A stretch of DNA of 600 nucleotides from Escherichia coli (lineage in GTDB: Bacteria; Pseudomonadota; Gammaproteobacteria; Enterobacterales; Enterobacteriaceae): assembly GCF_003334785.1 (NCBI RefSeq), contig NZ_QOWV01000081.1, one strand, 5' to 3'. The notes beneath the pieces were generated by a model that ran no database searches, was not told where the DNA came from, and was given only the letters and a program-made list of their open reading frames with translations. The translations under genes were made by a program, and so were the position numbers. Position 1 is the stretch's first letter, and the number at the start of each line of letters is the position of its first letter. Shown piece by piece: positions 1-600 of the stretch.

Positions 1-600
1 CCCTCATCCTCGCTGCGGATAAGTTTGCCGGTCAGGTCGTGGTGATAACGCTGTGTGCGGCCGTCAAAGCCGGTTTCCTGTATCAGCCGGTCAAGTACAT
101 CGTAACGGAAGGTGGTGTGGCTGCCGTTTTCACTGGTCAGGCGGATGACCCGTCCGGCAGCATCGTATTCCATACTGCGCGTCAGCCCGCCCTGCGTGGT
201 ACGGACGGCCTTTCCCCACGCATCGTACTGTGTCCCGTTTCTGCTGCCGTCCGGGGCAATGACGGCGGTCAGGTCACCGGCGATGTTGTATTCATACCGC
301 GTTTCATGGCCCTGCGTGTCTTTCACGGCAATTAACTGTCCACGGCTGTCGTATGCGCGGTACTGACTCAGCCCTTCCTCGCGGTGCACCGCCGTCATCT
401 GCTCGAAGCGGTCATGGTCATAACGGGTTACATAACCGGAACAGTCGGTGAAGCTCAGCAACTGACCGTAACGGCTCCACGTCATGGTTTTCCGGCTGCC
501 GGTGGCATCTTCCGTTGCGCAGGGTAAGTCACTGTGTGGATTATCATAACGGTAGCGGGTGATATCGCCGTCAGGGGCAGTTTCCTGAATCAGACGGCCC
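1..600 (-). CDS. Rhs-family YD-repeat core protein (polymorphic toxin shell), internal fragment; partial at both the 5' and 3' ends
   Basis: Seen in sequence: the reverse-complement frame with codons 599..597 down to 5..3 is open across the whole window (199 codons, no stop). Its translation carries YD dipeptides at about 21-residue spacing within motifs such as RYRYD, YRAYDSRGQLIAV, YEYNIAGDLTAV, MEYDAAGRVIRL, FRYDVLDRLIQE and RYHHDLTGKLI, matching the Rhs/YD-repeat consensus (roughly xRYxYDxxGRL). Established knowledge: this pattern defines Rhs/YD-repeat proteins (Pfam RHS_repeat PF05593, TIGR01643). From memory the residue string looks like the E. coli rhsA/B/C/D-type core, but I cannot assign a paralog or species without an alignment, so the gene symbol is left blank. 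No start or stop codon lies in the window, so the true gene extends beyond both edges. Confidence 0.93.

Follow-up and report, generated by a model that had tools for sequence, protein, structure and literature searches.

The window analysed here, by which we mean the whole stretch of 600 nucleotides of Escherichia coli DNA, is with high confidence an internal piece of an E. coli rhs gene from the RhsA/B/C subfamily, which is read from the minus strand, has a GC-rich core and is accompanied on the plus strand by open reading frames (ORFs) that are by-products (Table 1). Its translation matches the NCBIfam family NF041261 (RHS_core) collinearly from end to end (positions 501-699 of 1261, E 2e-116, 390 bits, where the curated cut-off of 2000 bits is that of the whole protein and is out of reach for a fragment of 199 residues), and it matches the YD repeat family TIGR01643 with E 4e-24 and 84 bits against a cut-off of 15.8. 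The Pfam family PF05593 (RHS_repeat) is found five times, with a best i-E of about 1e-10, and the segment is thus built of tandem YD/RHS repeats. At the nucleotide level, 599 of the 600 bases are identical to rhsB of strain K-12 (WP_000015298.1) and to its RhsA and RhsC paralogues over codons 493-691, and the frame, the YD repeats and the GC level of K-12 rhsB are alike as well (61.7% in its core and 59-60% in the corresponding stretch). Together, the profile matches and this identity show that the first-pass annotation was correct in calling the window an Rhs core. By megablast, the window sequence is carried by 3,897 of 5,426 complete E. coli genomes, at a median of 4 copies per genome and roughly 16,500 copies in all, and the best matches (599/600) lie under genes annotated as rhsA, rhsB, rhsC or “RHS element core protein”; the core sequence does not separate rhsA, rhsB, rhsC or another locus as the place of origin. 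The name RhsA-B-C-F for this subfamily is reportedly that of Hill and co-workers. The window contains no Rfam family (Rfam scan, E ≤ 1) and neither direct nor inverted repeats at the DNA level, so the YD periodicity exists at the protein level only.

Table 1. Features of the 600-nucleotide window, in window coordinates.
Feature	Position	Strand	Remarks
Rhs element core protein gene, internal segment (RhsA/B/C type)	3..599	-	199 complete codons, neither gene end; equals residues 493-691 of the 1,411-residue K-12 RhsB
Partial YD/RHS repeat, residues 1-19	543..599	-	PF05593 i-E 0.0011
YD/RHS repeat, residues 42-76	372..476	-	PF05593 i-E 3.6e-6; holds the rare Gly-to-Glu codon
YD/RHS repeat, residues 83-119	243..353	-	PF05593 i-E 3.3e-10
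Two overlapping YD/RHS repeats, residues 125-160 and 145-182	54..227	-	PF05593 i-E 5.5e-6 and 1.1e-10
Variant base (codon 66, window 402-404)	403..403	-	T here, C in K-12 rhsB and the other best matches; GGG (Gly) to GAG (Glu)
Minus-strand ORFs of the mechanical list	130..219, 182..259, 418..480, 482..547	-	All in the other two minus frames
98-residue antisense ORF	39..335	+	Lies in the codon-aligned antisense frame; taken as a by-product of sense codon usage
84-residue antisense ORF	112..366	+	Plus frame 1, with 11 stops in the window; judged spurious

The coding frame is the minus-strand frame at offset 1 (plus-strand positions 599 down to 3), which has no stop among its 199 codons, as the first-pass annotation had held, while the remaining five frames have 2, 5, 11, 13 and 13 stops. 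Under an independent-base model with the composition of the window, a given frame stays open for 199 codons with a probability of about 0.001, and among 2,000 dinucleotide-preserving shuffles 3% had at least one of the six frames free of stops; it is homology, not length, that validates the coding frame. The more distant comparison is with K-12 RhsD, of the RhsD-E subfamily, which has a collinear core with the same repeats and is 75% identical in protein and 77% in nucleotide sequence over the window. The 136 base differences that separate the window from this different subfamily fall mostly at third codon positions (32, 30 and 74 at positions 1, 2 and 3), an excess characteristic of a translated frame on which purifying selection acts. 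Of the 10 ORFs in the mechanical list, none lies in the open minus-strand frame. The absence had been put down to the lack of both a start and a stop within the window, and only the second half of that explanation survives, as in-frame starts are present (ATG at codons 39, 68 and 143, GTG at codons 71 and 92, and TTG at codon 47). What keeps the coding frame off the list is that it lacks a stop within the window and stays open past both ends, and the ORF finder by design omits ORFs that run off either end.

On the plus strand, the long ORFs had been attributed to high GC, and they are indeed spurious, but GC is not their full cause, as the frame of the 84-residue ORF exceeds the expected number of stops. 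The three plus frames have 11, 5 and 2 stops against 6.1 expected from the independent-base model with the window's composition. In the complete rhsB core, where 34 stops per antisense frame would be expected, the counts are 15, 60 and 34, and rhsD shows the same pattern. Depletion in one of three plus frames only (2 against 6.1) rules out GC alone as the agent that removes antisense stops. The depletion is confined to the codon-aligned antisense frame, where a stop requires a sense TTA, CTA or TCA codon. These codons are avoided here: the 13 Leu and 12 Ser codons of the sense frame include 2 TTA but no CTA and no TCA, whereas 6.3 would be expected if synonymous codons were used uniformly. GC acts through GC3 and is by itself insufficient to deplete the antisense stops. 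We consider it very improbable that either the 98- or the 84-residue ORF is a real overlapping antisense gene. Both ORFs exist, and antisense ORFs in whole cores reach 240-353 residues, but the lengths in the window are typical of codon-shuffled controls, where an ORF of at least 98 residues appears in 20% of the shuffled sense frames. Neither ORF has an NCBIfam match, the 98-residue ORF, which was the one scanned against Pfam, has no match there, and its identity to the rhsD counterpart is 57% compared with 75% for the sense frame. The translations of plus frame 1, which holds the 84-residue ORF, are 71% identical when the window is compared with rhsD. This might seem to favor a gene, but the value is expected because this frame and the sense frame have the wobble position in common; moreover, the frame is interrupted by 60 stops over the core, and the GTG start of the ORF is absent in rhsD. 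An antisense frame with a shared wobble position is thus a trap for conservation-based gene calling.

The single base by which the window departs from K-12 rhsB, at position 403, is non-synonymous. The Glu that it introduces replaces the Gly of a YD..G.L-type motif (YDHDRF-G-QMTAV), a Gly that rhsD keeps. None of the 5,426 complete E. coli genomes matches all 600 bases, and T at 403 in its 61-base context occurs in just one of them, that of strain E423, which was obtained from a cloacal swab in China. The Rhs core protein at the rhsA locus of E423 (WP_488362526.1, NZ_CM173464.1) shares the T at 403 and is identical to the window at 599 of 600 positions, the difference being a G instead of a C at position 350. 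Since a neighboring repeat in the window (YDVLDRLI) has Asp at the position equivalent to the Glu, the change from Gly to Glu may be tolerated. The same change within a repeat motif could also be the mark of a decaying copy. Two frameshifted remnants follow downstream at the E423 rhsA locus (L006, 7858-8967), an orphan “RHS repeat-associated core” fragment and an Imm57 immunity gene, and together they look like a displaced old tip/immunity pair of the kind described at rhs loci.

Direct counting over the whole window gives 353 G+C in 600 bases (58.83%), the same 353 that had been counted by hand, and the level ranges from 54 to 64% across sub-windows of 100 bases. Taken singly, the window is only a mild GC outlier, at 1.4 standard deviations. 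In a background sample of 234 kb from five regions of the K-12 chromosome, windows of 600 bases have a mean GC of 50.9% (sd 5.6%), and 4.6% of them are at or above 58.8%. The departure from the host is evident at the scale of the core. The 3,741 bases of the K-12 rhsB core have 61.7% GC (GC3 72.4%) compared with 36.6% in the 495-base tip and 51.7% in 34 kb of flanks, and the most GC-rich of 2,119 sampled K-12 windows of 3,741 bases has 58.75%, short of the core value. The segment is therefore GC-rich because the whole core of roughly 3.7 kb is GC-rich relative to the E. coli chromosome. The contrast of about 60% with 51% that the first-pass annotation had drawn from general knowledge of Rhs cores holds for the whole K-12 rhsB core, and a host genome near 59%, which would have left no anomaly to explain, is not what the sampled E. 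coli backbone shows (50.9-51.7%). The core of K-12 rhsD is similarly GC-rich at 63.3%, with a tip of 36.5%. Such a combination of a G+C-rich core with an A+T-rich extension has been described for Rhs genes (PMC2935791). At the boundary between the core and the tip of K-12 rhsB the GC content drops abruptly, with about 62% in the core and 32-43% beyond it (L001, 15753-18335), and the AT-rich stretch past the core contains the DUF4329 tip, yhhH (33% GC), a lyase pseudogene and the ISEc1 (H-rpt) transposase gene (41.5% GC).

Resolved by codon position, GC1, GC2 and GC3 are.608,.477 and.673 in the window and.648,.480 and.724 in the rhsB core, compared with means of.599,.408 and.611 for 27 neighboring genes. 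GC2 of both the window and the core is above that of all 27 neighbors, and position 2 carries about half of the window's GC excess over these genes. This GC2 excess arises because the repeat protein is rich in Thr, Arg, Gly and Asp, which make up 11%, 11%, 9.5% and 9.5% of the window's residues, respectively. GC-ending codons are shown to provide a further part of the excess, visible as high GC3, although the GC3 of the window alone lies less than one standard deviation from that of the neighboring genes.

The composition of the repeat protein leads to the question of where the GC excess comes from. A scan with one genome per species gave 39 loci with a homologous segment. Usable flanks were available for 28 non-enterobacterial loci, and in these the segment follows its flanks in GC over a range of 41% to 76% (slope 0.94, r 0.96), being richer by just +1.6 points on average (sd 2.7). 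Flank GC reflects host GC with some noise, and the 28 points are not independent, since many of the distant loci are from Chitinophaga. Four enterobacterial loci (two from E. albertii, one from Trabulsiella and one from Rahnella) show an excess between +5.9 and +10.8 points, and the window, at +7.2 over the K-12 flanks, is like these four. Since the non-enterobacterial homologues track the GC of their flanks, the excess is no general property of YD shells, and it is shown to be specific to the enterobacterial Rhs lineage. No locus in this species-representative scan is labelled E. coli, Escherichia being represented by E. albertii only, although most E. coli genomes contain the exact 8-residue query patterns; either the subfamily may be absent from the representative E. 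coli genome, or the scan may have missed it.

The direction of change within the core was obtained from substitutions polarised in rhs cores only (L001 18335-22075, minus strand; L009 8705-12640, plus strand; and L007 4041-8321, minus strand). On the branches leading to K-12 rhsB and E. albertii, with rhsD as the outgroup, 152 substitutions are GC-to-AT and 59 are AT-to-GC, and with two concordant outgroups the counts are 104 and 26, with deeper branches going in the same direction. Mutation is universally biased from GC to AT, and some such excess is expected everywhere. The rhs core in Escherichia appears to be losing GC at present. We propose that the core would have evolved in a GC-richer background and would now be slowly ameliorating, and a foreign GC-rich origin, without a date attached to it, is the reading that fits best.

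Other explanations of the GC excess can be set against this foreign origin. One is that the core owes its GC-richness neither to one ancient transfer nor to protein composition, and rather to repeated re-seeding by GC-rich donors or to some lineage-specific force. We regard this as doubtful, although it is the least doubtful of the alternatives; if true, the persistence of 60-64% GC at less than 50% identity in spite of GC loss would inform how often toxin shells are exchanged. Slightly less likely still is that GC-richness is intrinsic, meaning that YD shells need Gly, Arg, Thr, Ala and Pro codons and that nothing about origin can be inferred from it. The high GC2, with its half share of the window's excess, and the Thr-, Arg-, Gly- and Asp-rich protein agree with this idea, but the 28 non-enterobacterial segments track local GC throughout the 41-76% range, exceed it by just +1.6 points on average and have GC2 values down to.31-.39. 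In addition, the whole-core GC3 (.724) exceeds that of the neighboring genes (.611), and a composition dictated by the protein is at odds with a core that appears to be losing GC. As the sole cause of GC-richness, amino-acid composition is largely ruled out by the distant homologues that track local GC. A further possibility, which we consider improbable, is that the high GC is no foreign relic and is maintained in Escherichia, either by selection or by GC-biased gene conversion among near-identical rhs copies that form a recombination hot spot. The median of four near-identical copies per genome would provide the substrate for such conversion, rhs was named after recA-dependent exchange between copies (PMC2935791), and enterobacterial cores keep 60-64% GC even where their proteins are 47-56% identical. 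However, on the Escherichia branches polarised changes towards AT outnumber those towards GC by 2.6-4 to 1, opposite to the prediction, and parsimony errors would be expected to inflate the AT-to-GC class, so the AT-ward excess is probably conservative. The apparent loss of GC from the core thus argues against any GC-maintaining force, such as biased gene conversion.

There is next to no chance that the window comes from a GC-rich organism other than E. coli, in which case no compositional anomaly would exist. Near-identical fragments do occur in assemblies labelled as an Oscillospiraceae MAG and as Streptomyces griseoloalbus, but these contigs are 2.7 kb and 544 bases long, contain an rhs core only and are 97.8% and 99.2% identical in nucleotide sequence, which is the signature of contamination or mis-binning, while thousands of E. 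coli genomes carry, at fixed chromosomal loci, copies with 99.8% identity to the window. The two cores are those of the Oscillospiraceae MAG (L008, 1-2726) and of S. griseoloalbus JCM 4480 (L012, 1-544), and a short contig of a Lentisphaerae MAG (L010, 1-3462) also has an E. coli-type rhs core, with 75% protein identity. The rhs cores on Oscillospiraceae, Streptomyces and Lentisphaerae contigs are most likely contamination or mis-binning and not a true distribution.

The foreign GC-rich origin that we favor bears on the statement in the first-pass annotation that the high GC of Rhs cores is a sign of ancient horizontal acquisition. The lineage-specific excess and the apparent decay in GC fit a GC-rich foreign origin. 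The word “ancient” is less secure, as a single acquisition that was truly ancient should have been ameliorated by now. Hill and co-workers (Wang, Zhao & Hill 1998, J Bacteriol 180:4102) are said to have concluded that the subfamilies diverged before their acquisition by E. coli. Among the best non-enterobacterial relatives, which are 38% identical, no donor lineage was identified. The Rhs family has been described as old, mostly predating the Enterobacteriaceae and largely vertically inherited (Jackson et al. 2009, PMC2935791). An ISEc1 (H-rpt) transposase gene is located downstream of K-12 rhsB, and nothing ties mobility of the core to ISEc1.

Rhs cores, the combination of a GC-rich core with an AT-rich tip, and the role as a toxin shell are already known and have been described since the 1990s-2010s, and the window is confirmed as an ordinary piece of an E. 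coli Rhs core, with the earlier reading supported after refinement. The significance of the analysis beyond annotation hygiene is therefore small. An ORF list that drops ORFs running off the edges misses the only real gene in the window, yet it lists antisense by-products of up to 98 residues. The modest additions made here are the GC excess specific to the enterobacterial lineage and the apparent ongoing loss of GC from the core, both of which are consistent with the classical idea of a foreign origin.

The parent gene provides the context in which the segment would function. K-12 RhsB consists, by Pfam, of DUF6531, RHS repeats, RHS (PF03527, residues 1143-1179) and a DUF4329 tip, with the PxxxxDPxGL boundary motif at residue 1238 followed by the 495-base tip, and in MG1655 rhsB lies between nikR and the small gene yhhH, with an ISEc1 transposase gene further downstream. 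Both RhsB and RhsD start with MSGKPAARQGD, which contains a literal P-A-A-R at residues 5-8 (residues 1-12 of RhsB are encoded by L001 22040-22075, minus strand). Pfam finds no PAAR family on K-12 RhsB at E ≤ 10, and DUF6531 comes next, at residues 46-123. No genes of a type VI secretion system (T6SS) lie within 20 kb on either side of K-12 rhsB, and E. coli K-12 is not known to have a T6SS, so that for this subfamily delivery by such a system is at most putative.

By analogy with solved Rhs effectors, the roughly nine YD repeats of the segment would form part of the β-sheet “cocoon” wall of an Rhs polymorphic toxin, and the shell would hold a variable toxin domain at the C-terminus enclosed until it is delivered, for which a T6SS is the usual route. 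This role is assigned to the window by homology and is accordingly a predicted one. In Rhs effectors the shell encloses the C-terminal toxin, which is freed after delivery by the T6SS (PMC8765631, PMC11461821). In a phmmer search, the window significantly matches seven solved Rhs effectors or cores in their shell regions, with nearly the whole window covered and E-values from 2e-43 to 1e-23, and, judged from sequence, the window would thus adopt the β-cocoon shell fold. The solved T6SS Rhs effectors are distant from the family of the window and differ from it in their N-terminal delivery domains and toxin tips, but the cocoon walls themselves are similar. This is seen with the YD-repeat wall of Tse5 (8cp6, E 2e-43), with that of RhsA of P. 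protegens (7q97, E 2e-32) and with those of Tse15 (8uy4/8uxt) and Tre23 (7pq5), while the YD shells of teneurins and Tc toxins bear a more distant likeness to the window.
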